A stretch of 64,000 nt of DNA from contig CAYIBP010000003.1 of NCBI GenBank assembly GCA_964361705.1, forward strand, positions 5,606 to 69,605. Reading direction: 5' to 3'. The stretch comes from an uncultured Candidatus Saccharibacteria bacterium. GTDB lineage: Bacteria > Patescibacteriota > Minisyncoccia > Phycocordibacterales > UBA9973. The translations under genes were made by a program, and so were the position numbers. Each line of letters begins with the position of its first letter. The stretch's first letter is position 1. Below the pieces are notes generated by a model. It was not told the DNA's origin. It worked only from the letters and a program-made list of their open reading frames with translations, and made no database searches. Positions 303 through 35,014 of this stretch are shown piece by piece.

Positions 303-2060
303 TTAGCGACCGCTTTTAATATCTTCTATTTGTTTGTTAATTTCATTTATTTCTTTTAAAGTTTGCTCTGCGAGCGATACTTCTTTTTTTTCTTCCAGTT
401 CTTTAAGTTCTCGTATTTTCTTGGAAAGTTTCTCTTTTAAATCTTCTTCTTTCAGATTTCTTAGGAGCTCCATTGTATCTTTCTTCAAATCAGCTCCATC
501 TCCATAAAAAACCTCCGCTTCAAATATCAAATCTTCTTTATTGCTTTCCGCTTTATTAAAAATGGTTGATTCATCTTTGCCTAAAATGACTGTCAATTCT
601 CTCAACAGACTCTCAACATCAAAGCTTTGATTGTTCAAACTTTTTTGCCAAAAAACAATACCAAGCAATCTGTTCAAAATATAGTCTTTCCTGAAAAATG
701 CACTTCTACTGCTTTTGGCTTGTTCGATCTCATCTTTCTCTGTTTTTGATTCTTTTTCAATTTTTGACAGGTCTTCTCTTAAATCCTCCCCCCTTATCTG
801 CGATGCGTCGCTTATCTTGCGCAAAAAATCCGCTTTCTCTATTCTGCTTTCAAGCGCATTCACATAAGGCAACACTCTTTCTTTTATAGCTCTGCCCGCC
901 TTGCGAGTATCATTTTTATATTCGTTTAAAACTTTCTCTAAGAAAAATTCTATTATGTGTTTTGACTCTCTAATAGCAGAGCGCCAAGCATCAACTCCAT
1001 TCTTTGAGATCAAATCTGCCGGATCCACGCCTTCTTGCATGGAAGCAACTTTTACATCCATACCCAAAGACAAGGCGATCTTGCCAGCGCGAGCAGAAGC
1101 ATTCACCCCGGCTCGGTCAGCGTCAAATGCAAGTACGATGTTCTCTGAAAGTCGGCGAAGCAATCCTAAATTTGAAACTACATTTTCTTTTGAAACAAGA
1201 GCATCAGAAAGCGCTGTACCAGAAGTCGCTACTGTATTTTTAAACCCAGCCTGATGCGACAATACCAAATCCATCTGACCTTCAACCAAAATAGAAAAAT
1301 TATTCCTGCGAATTGAGTCTTTTGCTTTGTGAAGACCGTACAACACGGCAGATTTATTGAAAATGGGGGTATCCGGACTGTTGAGGTATTTAGCGGACTT
1401 ACCATCATCTTCAAAAATCCTGCCAGAAAAAGCAATAATGCGTCCGCTAGAGTCAGAGATAGGAAACATAATTCTTCCTCTAAATCTATCGTAGAATCCT
1501 TTTTCAGATTTCTTTGCAAGTCCCGCCTTTTCTATTTCCACATCCGTAAAACCCTTTTTCTGCAGATGAACGAGCAACAGCCTCCAATCGTTTTTTATAA
1601 AACCTATTCTAAAATCCTTGATTGTTTTTTCTTCTAGACCTCTTTTTTGCAAATATTCTAGAATTTCTTTGTTGTTTTCCAAACCCTGCTCAAAGAACAA
1701 ACACGCTTCTTCCATAGACTTGTACAACCTTTCTTTTTCGCTCTCTTTTTCTTTAGAGAATTCACCCAATACGACACCCGCTCTTTCTGCAAGCAACTTC
1801 AAAGCACCTTTAAAATCAAGGCCTTCGAATTCCTGCACAAAAGAAAAGATATCTCCTTTTGCGGCACAACCGAAACAATAATAACTACCTCGATCTGAAG
1901 ATACAAAAAAGGATGGTGTCTTTTCGTTGTGAAAAGGGCATCTGGCTTTGAAATTTATGCCTGATTTTTCAAGCTTTACATATGAAGATATAACCTCCTC
2001 AATAGAAAGTCTCTCTTTGATCTGCGAGACAGGAGAATTTGCTCCATTGTAAATTTTCAT
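303..2060 (-). CDS. dnaG: DNA primase
   Basis: 585 aa with the CHC2 zinc finger CPFHNEKTPSF...CFGC, a TOPRIM region (EGQMDLV, DADRAG), and rpoD downstream. Confidence 0.9.
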   Translation of the reverse strand: MKIYNGANSPVSQIKERLSIEEVISSYVKLEKSGINFKARCPFHNEKTPSFFVSSDRGSYYCFGCAAKGDIFSFVQEFEGLDFKGALKLLAERAGVVLGEFSKEKESEKERLYKSMEEACLFFEQGLENNKEILEYLQKRGLEEKTIKDFRIGFIKNDWRLLLVHLQKKGFTDVEIEKAGLAKKSEKGFYDRFRGRIMFPISDSSGRIIAFSGRIFEDDGKSAKYLNSPDTPIFNKSAVLYGLHKAKDSIRRNNFSILVEGQMDLVLSHQAGFKNTVATSGTALSDALVSKENVVSNLGLLRRLSENIVLAFDADRAGVNASARAGKIALSLGMDVKVASMQEGVDPADLISKNGVDAWRSAIRESKHIIEFFLEKVLNEYKNDTRKAGRAIKERVLPYVNALESRIEKADFLRKISDASQIRGEDLREDLSKIEKESKTEKDEIEQAKSSRSAFFRKDYILNRLLGIVFWQKSLNNQSFDVESLLRELTVILGKDESTIFNKAESNKEDLIFEAEVFYGDGADLKKDTMELLRNLKEEDLKEKLSKKIRELKELEEKKEVSLAEQTLKEINEINKQIEDIKSGR

Positions 2061-2108
2061 AAATTATTTTGAGTTACAAAGGCGAACTATTTCGTAATCC
2101 AAAGTATA

Positions 2109-5100
2109 TTATTCTTCTGTATTCCCTGTTTTAAAACCAGTACCCACCGGTATAAGTCGTCCGATGATAACGTTTTCCTTTAGTCCTCTCAAAGAATCTA
2201 TACCACCTTTTACAGCGTTCTCTATCAAAACACGGTTTGTGTTTTGGAAAGAAGCGGCAGAAAGCCAACTCTTGGTGCGAAGAGAAACTTCAGTTATACC
2301 AAGCACTATAATTTCTGCTTTTGCTTCTTTCAAACCTTCTTTTTCTACTCTTTGATTTTCTTCTATAAGAGCGGTATTTTCAATTATGTCTCCTATTGAG
2401 AAATTTGTTTCTCCTGCTTCTTTTACCTTTCTACGAGAAAACATTTGGCGCACGATGATCTCTGTGTGTTTTCTGGAAATAGAAGCACTTTGCAATTCGT
2501 ACACTTTGTTTATTTCACGAATAATGTATTCTTCTACCATTTCTTTTGTGCCAAGACTAAACATTTCAGCAATATCTGCGGAGCCATCAGTTAGGAGTTC
2601 ACCCTTCTTGACCTTCTGTCCAACCTTTACGATAGGAGTTCTACGAAAAGCGACGGTGTATTCTATTTCATTGGATTTGTTGCCCTTTACAGGATCGTCT
2701 GCCAAGATTTTGATAACTTTTTCTTTAGCGCTTAATTGCCCGTCCACCAAAACCTTTTCTTTAATTTCAAAGACTTCCCCGTCAACTTCAGAAATCACGG
2801 CAGAATTTTTAGGAGTTCTTCTTTCGAATATTTCCTCAACACGAGGCAAACCCGTGGTGATATCGGCACCCGCCACGCCTCCAGCGTGGAATGTACGCAA
2901 AGTAAGCTGTGTACCCGGCTCACCTATGGCTTGCGCGGCGATGATTCCCACAGCTTCACCAAGATTAACCATGTGGTTTCTTCCAAGATCAAGACCATAA
3001 CACATCTGACAAATTCCGTGCGTGGTTCTACAGGTCAAAGGAGATCTGACGAATACTTCCTCAAAACCAGCACCTTCGATATTACGAGCTTCTTCTTTGG
3101 TTACTAAGAAGCCCTTCTTGTAGATAGTCTTGCCGTCTGTGTCTTTCAAATCGCCGGCAAGTACTCTTCCGGAAATATTTTTAGCTAGTGGTATTTCAAT
3201 ACCGGAAATGTTTTCTTTTGTAACTACCTTGCCTTCTTTTGTACCGCAATCTTCTTCTGTGATCACAACATCTTGCGACACATCCACAAGTCTGCGAGTC
3301 AAATAACCCGCCTTTGCAGTGTTAAGAGCTGTGTCTGAAGCTCCTTTACGAGCACCGTGAGTGGTAACGAAATATTCAATAGGAGAAAGTCCTTCTTGAT
3401 AACATGGAATGATCGGAAACTCTAAAGTCTTACCCTGGTTATTCTGAATCAGACCTTTCATACCCGTCATCTGAATAAGTGAAGTCATCGTGCCTCTCGC
3501 GCCTGAAGTAAAAAGATCATAAGTAGAGCCATTCTTGTCTAGAGTCTTTGGCAAAACCTTTTCCAATTCTTTCTTGGATTGAGTCCAGATCTCTATAATC
3601 TTCTGATATCTTTCTTCTTCGGAAAGAAGACCGTCGTTCCATTCGTTGATTATTTTTGCTTCTAACTTTCTGCCATTTTCTATAATGCTTTCTTTCTCTA
3701 TTGGAACTTTCACATTATCAAGACCCCAAGTCGTGCCTGAAAATGTCGCGTACTTGAAACCGAAATTCTTTATCTTGTCCAATATTGGAGGAGTATTATC
3801 CACACCATAATGTACGATAAGCTCGTCAAGCAAAGCGGACAACCTCTTTTGTGTCATTTCATCACTGATATAAGGAAAGTCACTGGGCAATACACTATTG
3901 AATAACAATTTACCTACAGAGGTTTCAAACATTTGTTCATCAAACTTTTTATATTTAACATTTTTAGTAGCCAAAACTTTTATCTTTGCTCGAAAAGCCA
4001 CAATCCCATATTCGTATGCTGTAATAGCTGCATTTGGACTAGAAAAATATTTTCCTTCACCTTTTTCTCCTTCCACATTCTTGGTCATCCAATAAGAACC
4101 AAGCACCACATCTTTACTAGGATGCACTATAGGATCTCCGTTCTGTGGCTTCAAGAGATTTTTATTTGAAGCCATTAAATTTTTAGCTTCTGCTTGCGCT
4201 TCTTCTAAAAGAGGCACATATACAGCCATCTGGTCTCCGTCGAAGTCTGCATTGAACGCCTGACAAACAAGTGGATGCACTTGGATCGCATTGCCTTCTA
4301 TGAGGATAGGATTGAATGCTTGAATACCTAGTCTGTGCAAAGTAGGCGCGCGGTTCAACAAGACATACTTGCCTTTTATTACTTCTTCAAGCATAGCCCA
4401 GACTTCTGGAGTGCGTTCTTCGATAAGCTTGTTTGCGCCACGGATATTGAAAGCAAGCTCGGCCTGCAAAATTTTTGAAATTACAAAAGGTCTGAAAAGC
4501 TCCAAAGCCATATGTTTCGGAAGTCCGCATTGATTCAAAGCAAGTTCGGGACCGACAACAATCACAGAACGACCAGAATAATCAACACGTTTACCGAGAA
4601 GGTTCTGACGGAAAAGACCTTGTTTTGATTTCAAGTTGTCTGAAAGAGATTTCAACGGCCTTTTTTGAGACTGACTCATCGCCGCACTTTCGTTTTGTTT
4701 TGCTATTGAATTGTCTATCAAAGCATCTACCGCCTCCTGAATAATTCTTTTTTCATTTCTCAAAATAACATCCGGTGCATTTATTTCTTTGAGTTTTTTC
4801 AAACGATTATTTCTGTTTATTACTCTTCTGTAAAGATCGTTCAAATCTGAAGTGGCGTGTCGTCCTCCATCAAGAGCGACCATCGGGCGAAGCACTGGAG
4901 GAATGACAGGGATCGCAGTCAAGAACATCCATTCTGGTCTGATATCCGCATAGATCATGGCTCGTATTAGAGATAATCTTTTTTGAATTTTTTCTTTTTC
5001 TATGGAACTTGCCTTCTCGGATATCTTTTCTATATGGGATTTTAGTTTCTCCAAGTCCAAATTCTTGAATATGGAATAGATAGCTTCTGCGCCGATACTA

Positions 5101-28735: not shown

Positions 28736-29662
28736 TTAACTTATTTTCTTGCTTATAATATCTATCGCCTTGGTAATAAGCGGAATAATGTCATTGTAAA
28801 TGCGAAGCTGTGGGATTTCAGAAAGCTGAAACCATCTCGCATCATCAAGACCACCAGACTTTTCTAACACAAGTTCTTTGTACTCGCTCTCTGCTAAAAA
28901 ATAAACCACTTTTTTCAAAGTCTTGCCATTTTCCGGATGAGTTGCAACATATTCATTCACGCCTATTTTTTCTTTGATTTCTACATCAAGACCTATTTCT
29001 TCTTTTATTTCCCTTTTTGTGCCTGTCTCTATTTCTTCTCCTGACTCTACTTTACCTTTTGATAAAGTCCAATACCCAAAAACATCGTGTACAAAAGCAA
29101 ATAAAACATCACTGTCCTTCTTTGCATAAACTAATGCTCCACCCAGATTCTCAACGGGAAGTTTGCTGATATCTACAGACTCTTCTTTCTTTTTCGTTTT
29201 GCTTATCTGTTCTTTGCCCGGCTCGCCTATCTCTTTGTACACAGCACCCAACACGCCATTGATAAACTTGCTTGAATTTTCTCCACCGAAAGTTTTTGCA
29301 AGCTCTATGGCTTCGTTTATAGCAACTTTCGGAGGCACTTCATTTCTATCGCCGAAAAGGAGTTCGGTGAGACCAATCCTTAATATATTTCTATCAACAA
29401 CCGAGATTTTCTCAAGAGGCCAGTCTGGAGCTGCCTTTTTGATTATCTCATCAATAATGCTAGTTTTTTTTAATACAAGTTCAGCGAGAATAAAAACAAA
29501 CGGATCATCTTCAAAACTGGGAGTGAATTCTTTCAGGTTTCTTTTTAGAGCATTTTTCACTTTCTCTTCATCCCAAGAAACACCACCTTCATGAGTAGAC
29601 ATAAAATCCCATTCAAAGAGGGTTTGGAGAACTATTGATCTTGAAAGGTGCCTGTTTGCCAT
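28736..29662 (-). CDS. nusB: NusB antitermination factor fused to a C-terminal Nudix hydrolase domain
   Basis: The N-terminal 140 aa are NusB-like (RSIVLQTLFEWDF...VDRNILRIGLTELLF...INEAIELAKTFG). The C-terminus carries a Nudix box GYWTLSKGKVESGEEIETGTKREIKEEIG. Confidence 0.8.
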   Translation of the reverse strand: MANRHLSRSIVLQTLFEWDFMSTHEGGVSWDEEKVKNALKRNLKEFTPSFEDDPFVFILAELVLKKTSIIDEIIKKAAPDWPLEKISVVDRNILRIGLTELLFGDRNEVPPKVAINEAIELAKTFGGENSSKFINGVLGAVYKEIGEPGKEQISKTKKKEESVDISKLPVENLGGALVYAKKDSDVLFAFVHDVFGYWTLSKGKVESGEEIETGTKREIKEEIGLDVEIKEKIGVNEYVATHPENGKTLKKVVYFLAESEYKELVLEKSGGLDDARWFQLSEIPQLRIYNDIIPLITKAIDIISKKIS

Positions 29663-30007: not shown

Positions 30008-30035
30008 TTGACAATAAATATATCCGCGCTATCAT
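30008..30035 (+). promoter_or_regulatory. Sigma-70-type promoter of the thrS leader (TTGACA-16-TATCAT)
   Basis: TTGACA at 30008-30013, a 16-nt spacer, TATCAT at 30030-30035. Confidence 0.5.
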
Positions 30036-30041
30036 ACTCTT

Positions 30042-30224
30042 ATATAGAGATTGTCACGGCTACCAACCGTAATCCGATTAAAACGGACTCTTAAGAGAGC
30101 TAATCTATGAAAGAGCGCTCGGGAAAATTCTCGAGAAACTAGGTGGAACCACGAGGACTTTAACTTCCCCGCCCTAGTAAGGATGTAGAACTTTTGCATC
30201 TTTACTAGGGCGGGGATTTTTTGT
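30042..30224 (+). ncRNA. T-box riboswitch leader (Thr-specific candidate) ending in an intrinsic terminator
   Basis: The T-box-like sequence AACTAGGTGGAACCACGAG (30137-30156) matches AGGGUGGNACCGCG at 11 of 13 positions. The UGGA bulge could pair with the tRNA NCCA end. ACC Thr codons followed by a purine lie in the upstream stem region (GGCTACCAACCG). A 14-bp GC-rich terminator CCCCGCCCTAGTAA...TTACTAGGGCGGGG plus a T-run sits at 30167-30224. About 230 nt separate the promoter from the thrS ATG. Confidence 0.55.
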
Positions 30225-30270
30225 TTTATATTATTAAAATTAATCAATTAACCTATTTGAAATAGTTTTT

Positions 30271-32019
30271 ATGGAAAAAGAAAATTTAGAACACAAAAGA
30301 CATTCGTTAGCGCATTTGTTATCAGCAGCAGTTTTGGAACTTTACCCCGATACAAAAAACACTATCGGTCCTGCTATTGATGATGGTTTCTATTATGATT
30401 TTGAATTCTCTGAACCTATATCAGACAAAGATCTGCCAAATATAGAGAAAAAAATGCGCGCGCTTTTGAAATCTTGGAAAGAATTTAAAAGTGAAGAAAA
30501 AACAAAAGAAGAAGCGCAAGAATATTTCAAAAATAATCCATACAAACTAGAACTAATAAACGAGATAAAAGATAAGAGTGAAAAAATTACTTTTTATACT
30601 TGTGGCAATTTTACTGATTTATGCCGAGGTGGACACAGTGAAAACCCTAGCAGAGATATCGCCCCAGACTCTTTCAAACTTGATCGCGTAGCAGGCGCAT
30701 ACTGGCGTGGAGATGAAAAAAACAAAATGCTCACTCGCATATATGGATTAGCTTTTGAAACGAAAGACGAGCTTGAAAAATATATTTATCAAAGAGAAGA
30801 AGCAAAGAAAAGAGACCATAGAAAGCTCGGCAAAGAACTTGAACTCTTTACAAACATAGAAGAAATCGGCCCTGGGCTTCCCCTCTTTTATCCAAATGGC
30901 ACAATATTGCGTAGAACGATTGAGAACTTTATACAAGAAACTCAGGAAGCGCTGGGCTACGTTCCTATCTGGATACCTCATATAACAAAAGAAAATTTGT
31001 ATAAAATCTCTGGGCACTTGGATAAATATGATGCCATGTATTCACCTATGAAAATAGATGATGATAATTATTATCTAAAACCCATGAATTGTCCGCATTT
31101 CATGATGCTATACAAGACAAAACCACATTCATACAAAGAAATGCCTGTGCGATACACTTGCACGACGACAAATTACCGTTACGAAAAATCAGGTGAACTA
31201 TCTGGTCTCACTCGAGTGCGCGCGCTGACTCAGGACGACTGTCATGTATTTTGCGAACCAGAAAAAATAAAAGAGGAAATAAATTTAATTCTAAAAATGA
31301 TAGAAAAAGTTTATTCTGCATTTGGACTCAAAGATTTCTATGTACGCATATCGCTCCGTGATTCAAAAGACAAAAGCAAATATTTGGGTTCCGATAAAGT
31401 ATGGGAAACGGCAGAAAACGCTCTCCGTGAGATAGTGAAAGCTACAGGTTGGAAATACGAAGAAGCCGAAAATGAGGCCGCTTTCTACGGACCAAAATTA
31501 GACTTTATGTTCAAGGACGCCATAGGTCGTGAGTGGCAACTCTCCACCGTACAACTAGACTTTAATCTGCCAGAAAGATTTGAATTGGAGTATACAAACA
31601 ACAACGGAGAAAAGGTTCGTCCTGTAGTGATACATCGTGCAATTCTCGGATCCACAGAAAGATTTATGGGTATAATGATCGAACATTTTGCTGGTAATTT
31701 CCCTCTTTGGCTTTCGCCTACCCAAGTCGCCATAGTACCTGTACGCGAAAACCACGACGAAGAAGCACTCAAACTTGCAGACAGCTTGAAAGCAGAAAAT
31801 TTGCGCGTAGAAATATATCAATCCGCATCAGATAGTCTTGGCAAGCGCATCCATAAAGCAAAAGATATGTTGATACCTTATGTCATAGTCCTTGGTGACA
31901 AAGAAGTCTCCTCCCAAAAACTCACAATAGAAAAGAGAGATGGCACAAAGATAGAAAATATTTCTGCTTTAGAATTTATAGAGAGTTTAAAGAGGGGAAC
32001 AGAAAAAAAAGACCTTTGA
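30271..32019 (+). CDS. thrS: Threonyl-tRNA synthetase (lacks the N-terminal TGS/N1 region)
   Basis: 582 aa. It begins in the second additional domain (HxxxH ... CxxxxxxCRGGH zinc motif), followed by the class II catalytic core and the anticodon-binding domain. Confidence 0.9.
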   Translation: MEKENLEHKRHSLAHLLSAAVLELYPDTKNTIGPAIDDGFYYDFEFSEPISDKDLPNIEKKMRALLKSWKEFKSEEKTKEEAQEYFKNNPYKLELINEIKDKSEKITFYTCGNFTDLCRGGHSENPSRDIAPDSFKLDRVAGAYWRGDEKNKMLTRIYGLAFETKDELEKYIYQREEAKKRDHRKLGKELELFTNIEEIGPGLPLFYPNGTILRRTIENFIQETQEALGYVPIWIPHITKENLYKISGHLDKYDAMYSPMKIDDDNYYLKPMNCPHFMMLYKTKPHSYKEMPVRYTCTTTNYRYEKSGELSGLTRVRALTQDDCHVFCEPEKIKEEINLILKMIEKVYSAFGLKDFYVRISLRDSKDKSKYLGSDKVWETAENALREIVKATGWKYEEAENEAAFYGPKLDFMFKDAIGREWQLSTVQLDFNLPERFELEYTNNNGEKVRPVVIHRAILGSTERFMGIMIEHFAGNFPLWLSPTQVAIVPVRENHDEEALKLADSLKAENLRVEIYQSASDSLGKRIHKAKDMLIPYVIVLGDKEVSSQKLTIEKRDGTKIENISALEFIESLKRGTEKKDL

Positions 32020-34372: not shown

Positions 34373-34377
34373 TTTCG

Positions 34378-34453
34378 TGACGGTGACGGGATTCGAACCC
34401 GTGGACACTGCTTCTCAGGCAGTTGGCGATCCTATCGCCTCGTCTCCACCGTC
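34378..34453 (-). tRNA. tRNA with an atypical cloverleaf and an apparent GAG anticodon
   Basis: On the minus strand there is a perfect 7-bp acceptor (GACGGTG/CACCGTC), a T-arm ACGGG-TTCGAAT-CCCGT, an anticodon arm ACTGC-CTGAGAA-GCAGT and a D-arm GGCG-ATAGGAT-CGCC. Seven nt, not two, separate the acceptor from the D-stem, and the variable loop is 4 nt. A GAG (Leu) anticodon should come with a long variable arm, which is absent, so the identity is uncertain. Confidence 0.55.
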
Positions 34454-35014
34454 ATGAACATCGCATTTGATACGACAAAGTCATATGAAATGCGATATCC
34501 ACGATAGATAAAGACAAAAAAATTGGGGGTGGATTGAAAAAATTTTCGCGCCAACCCCCTCATTTTCTCTATCCTTATTTGCCTTTTCGTTTAACCAACT
34601 CCCTTCTAAAGAGGAATTGGGGGGAAGGCATTCAGATAGAGAGCAGAAAACACAAAACCTTTTATTTATGTCAATTGCTCTCTATCCGAAAATCTTTGCC
34701 AAAGAACAAAATCTAGTAAAAACTAAACTAGCCCTATCCTTGCGGAGAGGGCTAGTGTTTGAGTTGTATATTTTCCCTTATTTCCTTCTTAGTTATACAG
34801 CGCAAGCATCAGACCTCTCCTTCCCGTGTTGGGTGAGGATAGTAATAAAGAGGACGACGTATTTGCTTGCAAACTGTAAAGTTTTCACAGCTACAAATAT
34901 ACCAAAATCGAAAAAAACCTGCAAGCGCAAGTGTGGATAACTCCCAAATTTTAAGGAGCAAAGCGACTATAAAACTTGAGGATCCCGCCAAAGGCGGGAT
35001 AAAAATAGAGATTT

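Follow-up and report, generated by a model that had tools for sequence, protein, structure and literature searches.

A small thrS leader in Patescibacteria, apparently a structurally reduced T-box variant

The thrS locus and its family of leaders

The window (the whole 64,000-nucleotide stretch of DNA analysed here) carries thrS on its forward strand (30271..32019), which encodes a threonyl-tRNA synthetase (ThrRS) of 582 amino acids and which we take to be the regulated gene. Domain matches identify the class II core, the anticodon-binding domain and the SAD domain of the enzyme, which lacks the N-terminal TGS domain. Its best relatives are all from the Candidate Phyla Radiation (CPR)/Patescibacteria (Nomurabacteria at 63% identity, then Paceibacterota, Parcubacteria, Falkowbacteria and Komeilibacteria) and, judged from them, the lineage is an unusual one for a T-box, as the first-pass annotation of this DNA had remarked. 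The gene for ribosomal protein L32 lies divergently upstream of the thrS leader, and a single open reading frame of 308 amino acids on the minus strand (28736-29662) combines a NusB domain with a NUDIX hydrolase domain.

The leader itself is about 175 nt long (30044-30216, plus strand) and lies between a promoter and thrS. The promoter, a near-consensus sigma-70 type that had already been recognised, stands up well: TTGACA (30008-30013) and TATCAT (30030-30035), separated by 16 nt, give 11 of 12 matches (30008..30035, plus strand). The predicted transcription start, at about 30042-30044, coincides with the foot of P1, the first helix of the leader, and the -10 box of the window ends 8 nt 5' of that helix. 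Throughout the family described below, -10-like hexamers end 7-10 nt 5' of P1; their distances peak sharply at 7 nt, with a count of 37 where the background is 1-5. This indicates that the RNA begins at P1 and leaves no room for a long Stem I upstream. A 196-nt stretch of the region folds with -71.7 kcal/mol (z = -7.1 against shuffles). The 71-amino-acid open reading frame on the minus strand (30032..30247) is spurious, as had been suspected, and represents the leader read antisense; it has no Pfam match and its frame is not kept in relatives, where the longest antisense open stretch has a median of 47 amino acids.

The leader belongs to a family of at least about 111 distinct members, which come from CPR/Patescibacteria wherever taxonomy is available. 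Leaders at eight loci identified by ThrRS homology, and at four more found later with a covariance model, align with that of the window element by element. The 5' order is P1 (5 bp), the strand GAUUG, P2 (6 bp, with the heptaloop YUACCAA), one or two variable hairpins, the strand CUAA and the 3' strand of P1; the shared 3' order is a purine-rich linker (usually with a Stem III), the T-box and a terminator. Further members came from a metagenome scan. Its pattern prescribed GATTG, the AA after the triplet, CTAA and GGTGGNACCRCG but put no constraint on the triplet, on the arms of the hairpin or on the first two bases of the loop. Among scan matches, GAUUG, AA, CUAA and the T-box core are therefore invariant as a product of the search, and the unbiased evidence for these elements is provided by the 13 leaders found via ThrRS homology. 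The triplet, the RRRxG and AA flanks of Stem III and the pairings, on the other hand, were not search criteria.

Among the matches listed from this free-triplet scan, 105 of 119 have the triplet ACC together with arms of 5-6 bp. The remaining 14 of the 119 listed have 0-4 arm pairs, mostly with another UGGN, and are chance matches beside ordinary T-boxes. No other amino-acid specificity occurs among the scan matches listed; the family, as sampled here, is confined to threonine, so that codon switching between genes offers no confirmation of ACC, the putative specifier. The gene downstream is thrS in 98 of the 113 listed, directly in 97 and behind a small acetyltransferase-like open reading frame in one. 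The other 15 comprise 14 contigs that end too soon and L092, which has no thrS within 1.1 kb and whose leader has a large insertion in the A2 loop. The prevalence of ACC and the presence of thrS downstream tie the scaffold both to threonine and to this gene. A motif search over 1.2 Mb yielded no further T-box leaders beyond thrS leaders, with ordinary T-boxes as noise.

A covariance model was built from 44 leaders with the window left out. It gave a single hit in the window, at 30044-30177, which is full length and scores 92.1 bits (E 8e-18), and only 21-28 bits on canonical T-boxes from Anaerolineae. The earlier proposal that thrS has a T-box-type leader is supported. A minus-strand match in L023 lies antisense inside thrS and was set aside as chance. 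We likewise rejected the GGGUGGCACC site of L081 as a T-box, since it looks like part of an RNase P RNA: the structured region at about 1990-2330 (plus strand) of that contig contains both AAAGUCCGGGG and GGGUGGCACC, is followed by a terminator and resembles the RNase P RNA of the CPR organism concerned.

We note several variations on the locus. The open reading frame between leader and thrS, found in L145, encodes 185 amino acids; at that locus the leader may govern an operon of two genes. At seven loci (L095, L103, L107, L122, L141, L185 and L199) the ThrRS match starts at about residue 155-182 of the window protein, apparently reflecting shorter synthetases that lack the N-terminal SAD/editing region and have the same leader. 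Four other CPR thrS leaders (L063 1254-1420, L028 1364-1460, L031 1330-1440 and L026 1350-1434) have a GGGUGGAACC bulge and a terminator; their 5' domains are different and apparently even simpler, and the larger loop of L063 still has ACC.

The antiterminator, the terminator and the discriminator

The T-box string AACTAGGTGGAACCACGAG is located at 30137-30155 and is the one to which the first-pass annotation had drawn attention (AACUAGGUGGAACCACGAG). It forms part of an antiterminator (30139..30177, plus strand) to which the 3' half of the Rfam T-box model, RF00230, can be aligned. Helix A1 pairs CUAGG (30139-30143) with CCUAG (30173-30177), and its three outer pairs covary; helix A2 pairs ACGAGG (30151-30156) with CCCCGC (30167-30172); and the 7-nt T-box bulge UGGAACC (30144-30150, with UGGA at 30144-30147) lies between the two. 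Covariation in A1 and A2 was assessed in an alignment of 44 whole leaders. The pair at the base of A2, a position described as the T-box steric sensor (PMC7583486), is G-U in 30 leaders of this alignment, G-C in eight and A-U in three, and thus shows the wobble behaviour known from T-boxes; the window has A-C.

Read from the sequence, the UGGA of the bulge is complementary to a UCCA tRNA end, and the pairing that had been proposed on this basis is plausible. UGGA is present in 109 of the 111 distinct members listed and UGGG in the other two (L151 and L185), whose organisms are accordingly predicted to have discriminator C in tRNA-Thr. One tRNA-Thr gene was found on a member contig (L163); it encodes the UGU isoacceptor, not GGU, and ends in U73-CCA, which matches UGGA. 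Neither the window nor the loci examined contain a tRNA-Thr(GGU) gene.

The linker 5' of the antiterminator supplies the first part of a discriminator (30113..30135, plus strand), in which GAGCG (RRRxG, 30113-30117) is followed by Stem III (30118-30135, 7 bp) and then by AAA. A linker hairpin of this kind occurs in 81 of the 111 leaders listed, with RRRxG on its 5' side (purines 90-100%, G 91%) and AA on its 3' side (91-94%). The combination RRRxG-Stem III-AA is the motif that defines the aminoacylation-sensing T-box discriminator (PMC7583486). Stem III is absent from the remaining 30 of the 111 leaders listed, including the closest relative, L001, as well as L029, L085 and L099 (an example of such a linker is AAAGAACAAAGUUG). 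In T-boxes, Stem III has been reported to be indispensable for binding of the tRNA 3' end (PMC7583486).

An intrinsic terminator follows (30166..30227, plus strand), consisting of a 24-bp hairpin (30166-30216, -42.7 kcal/mol) and the U-run U6-G-U4 (30217-30227). The earlier description of a strong terminator with a U-run was correct as such, but the stem has 24 pairs and not 14, and the terminator ends 44-54 nt before the ATG, not just before it. The 5' arm of the terminator is made of the 3' strands of A2 and A1, so the antiterminator and terminator helices are mutually exclusive and the alternation that was to be checked is indeed present. The antiterminator of the window alone has -4.9 kcal/mol, as compared to -42.7 kcal/mol for the terminator; the difference suggests that the default state is off and that the antiterminator needs stabilisation from outside, as in T-boxes. 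Within the family, a terminator (defined as at least -10 kcal/mol, then a U-run) was detected in 101 of 108 members (median -29.7 kcal/mol), and the 3' strand of A1 is located inside it in 84 of 90.

The 5' domain and the anatomy of canonical T-boxes

The 5' domain is closed by P1, in which AUAGA (30044..30048, plus strand) pairs with UCUAU (30104..30108, plus strand). Inside it, the junction strand GAUUG (J1/2, 30049..30053, plus strand) leads into P2, and CUAA (J4/1, 30100..30103, plus strand) leads back to P1; each strand is conserved in 12 of the 13 leaders found via ThrRS homology, and a role in holding the junction is what we tentatively assign to them. P2 (30054..30072, plus strand; arms 30054-30059 and 30067-30072) contains one C-A mismatch in the window and carries the heptaloop CUACCAA (30060-30066), with the putative specifier ACC (30062-30064) followed by AA. 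Two small hairpins complete the domain. P3 (UCCG-AUUAAAA-CGGA, 30073..30087, plus strand) corresponds to a variable hairpin that in the family starts directly 3' of P2, and P4 (CUCU-UAAG-AGAG, 30088..30099, plus strand) to a second small hairpin, adjoining CUAA in about half of the members. The loop sequences of P3 and P4 are not conserved across the family. All of the 65 nt between the transcription start and the purine-rich linker are accounted for by P1-P4.

The pairings were evaluated in an alignment without gaps that comprises 102 distinct 5' domains. P1 is paired in 90% of cells, with compensatory changes at five of its five pairs, and P2 in 97.5%, with covariation at all six; the two helices together have 11 of 11 pairs changed on both sides. 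Controls in which the strands were slid are only 28-40% paired, and on four of the five summary measures none of 500 shuffles came up to the real alignment; the remaining measure, which counts pairs changed on both sides, is saturated. RNAalifold alone recovers P2 and A1 but not P1, and the support for P1 is therefore that of the direct pair counts. An alternative register, AGAUUG/UAAUCU, could form in the window. It is paired in about half of the family (46-52% for pairs 5-36 and 7-34), and for this reason we prefer P1. Within the P1 register, the UAA of CUAA could pair with the UUG of GAUUG, a possible lengthening of P1 across the junction strands by U-A, U-A and G-U past a GA bulge; three variants with CCAA keep the last of these proposed pairs as G-C.

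The loop of P2 is conserved. Leaders found by ThrRS homology have the consensus (C/U)(U/C)ACCAA and, in the 111 leaders listed, position 1 is a pyrimidine in 110 (99%) and position 2 is U in 93 (84%). The resulting layout (pyrimidine-U-triplet-A-A) is that of a tRNA anticodon loop. The third base of ACC is C and the next base is a purine; T-box specifiers usually end in C (PMC7583486). An ACC specifier had been suggested from the sequence, and an ACC-A is present at 30062-30065, about 205 nt 5' of the thrS ATG; its place, however, is the 7-nt loop capping a hairpin of 6 bp, and it does not occupy an internal loop within a long Stem I.

What had been expected, a canonical Stem I with the specifier in an internal loop and with an AG bay and a distal loop, is absent. 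The leader has neither a long Stem I nor a K-turn, and it shows no S-turn specifier loop, no AG bay/distal loop, no Stem II and no pseudoknot; none of the corresponding motifs (the GA motif, AGUA/GAA, AGAGA and CCGUUA) is conserved in the family; the GAUUG and CUAA junction strands have no tandem G-A pairs. At its gathering score, RF00230 has no match anywhere in the window, and the region alone (351 nt) scores 35.2 bits (E 2e-6), far below the threshold of 93, with only the 3' half matching. Stem III, the T-box bulge and A1/A2 fit this model well. Its Stem I is deleted (87 model positions are reduced to 21 nt), the alignment puts its 5' end on DNA that lies upstream of the transcription start, and the GA motif falls on DNA 5' of the -35 box. 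The IIA/B (F-box) hairpin of the model is placed on P2, whose arms vary freely in the family; CCGUAA in the window is the variable 3' arm of P2 and not an F-box. No other Rfam family matches the region. At gathering thresholds, Rfam identifies no T-box in 20 related loci, and E-value thresholds give only partial 3' matches to relatives, of 36-40 bits, or nothing. As a calibration, the thrS leaders of two Anaerolineae (L035 and L034) are canonical full-length T-boxes that score 84 and 68 bits, and their alignments show the K-turn, S-turn, AG bay, distal loop, Stem II and F-box.

The failure of Stem I and of the RF00230 check had been expected to leave simple attenuation as the explanation. This does not follow, because a complete discriminator and the ACC loop are conserved across at least about 111 leaders. 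The original observation is real, and its interpretation was right in kind and wrong in anatomy.

Proposed mechanism, known relatives and alternatives

We conclude, with a probability of roughly 80%, that this is a T-box riboswitch which acts by attenuating transcription, is specific for tRNA-Thr(GGU) and has a decoding domain of unusually small size. P1-P4 would fold into a compact four-helix junction, held by GAUUG and CUAA, that displays the threonine codon ACC in the terminal loop of P2, where the anticodon of tRNA-Thr(GGU) would pair with it. If the tRNA is uncharged, its 3' UCCA would also pair with the UGGA bulge, which would stabilise the antiterminator and allow transcription of thrS. 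Charging would make this second contact impossible, and with charged tRNA, or none, the 24-bp terminator would form and transcription would stop at the U-run.

The proposal meets a difficulty in what is known of tRNA binding by T-boxes. In current structural models, a transcriptional T-box depends on the platform of its long Stem I for rapid capture of the elbow of the tRNA (PMC7583486). The platform to which the tRNA elbow binds is held to be essential in transcriptional T-boxes, and a Stem I that is truncated has hardly any affinity for tRNA unless Stem II and its pseudoknot assist (PMC7583486). Lacking both an elbow platform and Stem II, the leader might bind tRNA poorly or need a helper factor. 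We suggest that a loop-loop complex replaces the elbow and Stem II contacts. Given the anticodon-loop-like layout of the P2 loop, the codon could be pre-stacked as it would be in an anticodon loop. Complementary anticodon loops bind each other far more tightly than free triplets do, as older work established, and Grosjean and colleagues reportedly described such complementary anticodon-anticodon loop complexes between tRNAs in vitro. The arrangement proposed here would be similar (a pair of 7-nt loops whose triplets are complementary, with a 3' purine on which each triplet stacks), although the tRNA-tRNA pairs are in vitro complexes and not regulatory, so that their relevance to the leader is by analogy.

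The likeness to canonical T-boxes such as those of B. subtilis tyrS and thrS and of glyQS lies mainly in the 3' half of the leader: a UGGN bulge predicted to pair with the NCCA end of the tRNA, helices A1 and A2, RRRxG-Stem III-AA and a mutually exclusive intrinsic terminator. The leader also shares with them a cognate codon that ends in C and is followed by a purine, and a position upstream of an aminoacyl-tRNA synthetase gene; like glyQS, it has neither Stem II nor the pseudoknot. In contrast to canonical T-boxes, there is no long Stem I, K-turn (GA motif), S-turn or AG bay/distal loop platform, the codon occupies the terminal heptaloop of a hairpin within a four-helix junction that P1 closes, the score of 35 bits falls well short of the gathering score (93), and 30 of the 111 relatives listed lack Stem III.

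The ultrashort (US), or class II, ileS T-box of Actinobacteria (Sherwood et al. 2015) is similar in having its specifier in the terminal loop of a short helix, in having no elbow-binding double T-loop, and in the presence of Stem III and the T-box bulge. US T-boxes are the only described type with a terminal-loop specifier; they are translational and all recognise tRNA-Ile (bioRxiv 10.1101/2023.02.28.530422). They require a K-turn, a Stem II S-turn and a IIA/B pseudoknot (PMC7583486), none of which the leader has. They also differ from it in acting through a Shine-Dalgarno sequestrator and in being reported only for ileS, where the leader is terminator-based and Thr-specific; P1 of the leader encloses the specifier hairpin together with two variable hairpins.

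The family is apparently a large, structurally reduced and undescribed T-box variant, and full-text literature searches returned no paper that links T-boxes with CPR or Patescibacteria. We consider it somewhat more probable than the contrary that it represents a third architectural class of T-box: a natural, minimal transcriptional type that reads tRNA-Thr through an anticodon-loop-like "codon loop" on a four-way junction, without the K-turn, S-turn, Stem II or elbow platform on which tRNA capture during transcription is at present believed to depend, and that is widespread in Patescibacteria and restricted to thrS. Counted as far as the antiterminator's 3' end, the leader measures about 135 nt, and relatives that lack Stem III about 105 nt. 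If our reading is true, a terminator switch that operates without an elbow platform or Stem II would constitute a different solution to tRNA capture, and a pre-organised loop-loop interaction may be that solution. The family would then be the smallest natural T-box scaffold, of use for structural work and for engineered tRNA sensors, and one of the few defined cis-regulatory RNAs from CPR bacteria, which are largely uncultured and poor in regulation.

Of the alternatives, the one that survives best places something additional at the junction: either the junction is an aptamer for a small molecule such as threonine, combined with a T-box-like platform, or a further protein or RNA partner holds the tRNA. 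Conserved nucleotides (GAUUG and CUAA) do sit in the junction, as they do in many aptamers, and the elbow or Stem II contacts that T-boxes require (PMC7583486) are unmet, which leaves room for something else to add affinity. However, the unpaired block with the highest conservation is the ACC loop, which is remote from the junction, the UGGA matches the 3' end of tRNA-Thr, and a full aminoacylation-sensing discriminator would have no purpose in a switch for a small ligand. This explanation is less economical than the T-box reading. We regard it as unlikely but worth bearing in mind, given that a truncated Stem I is described as almost inactive when Stem II is missing (PMC7583486).

Autoregulation by ThrRS is less probable still. 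P2 would then be a mimic of the anticodon arm, bound by the synthetase, and the protein would control the terminator; the 7-nt loop of P2, with its Y-U-NNN-A-A layout, does resemble an anticodon arm, and the gene is thrS. There is said to be a precedent in the E. coli thrS operator, a tRNA mimic studied by Springer, Romby and their colleagues. ThrRS reads G35 and U36 of tRNA-Thr. The E. coli operator copies the anticodon (NGU), which the enzyme reads at the ribosome-binding site. The leader resembles that operator in being a thrS leader with an anticodon-arm-like hairpin but differs from it in a T-box bulge, a terminator and a loop triplet, ACC, that is the codon: it does not copy the anticodon but is its complement. 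Moreover, the UGGAACC bulge, RRRxG-Stem III-AA and the design of A1/A2 against the terminator would all be left unexplained. We therefore give this explanation very little weight.

Nor do we find it credible that the leader is a canonical class I T-box, with a long Stem I, K-turn, S-turn loop and AG bay/distal loop, that has merely diverged in sequence. Its T-box sequence, Stem III and terminator are typical, and the related ThrRS genes of Anaerolineae carry full-length T-boxes (the 84 and 68 bits given above). The anatomy rules this out: the RF00230 alignment drops Stem I and places the rest on promoter DNA, the -10 box is found 7-10 nt before P1 family-wide, the 65 nt from the start to the purine linker are assigned to P1-P4 by covariation, and the canonical motifs are not conserved. 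Least credible of all is constitutive attenuation, a chance hairpin-rich spacer or a real 71-amino-acid protein on the minus strand: a terminator alone would attenuate and the open reading frame does appear in the six-frame list, but the comparative data refute this: the structure is conserved with covariation throughout the family, and the reading frame, without a Pfam match, is not. The T-box reading is the one that we retain.

The window contains one other element with features of a tRNA. It lies on the minus strand (34377-34454), about 105 nt upstream of gyrB and on the same strand as that gene, and matches the Rfam tRNA model with 34.4 bits without being called by ARAGORN. Its geometry is odd: an 8-bp acceptor stem and a 7-nt spacer precede a 6-bp "D" stem with a 3-nt loop, and then come an anticodon arm bearing GAG, a variable region of 4 nt and a T arm of normal form.
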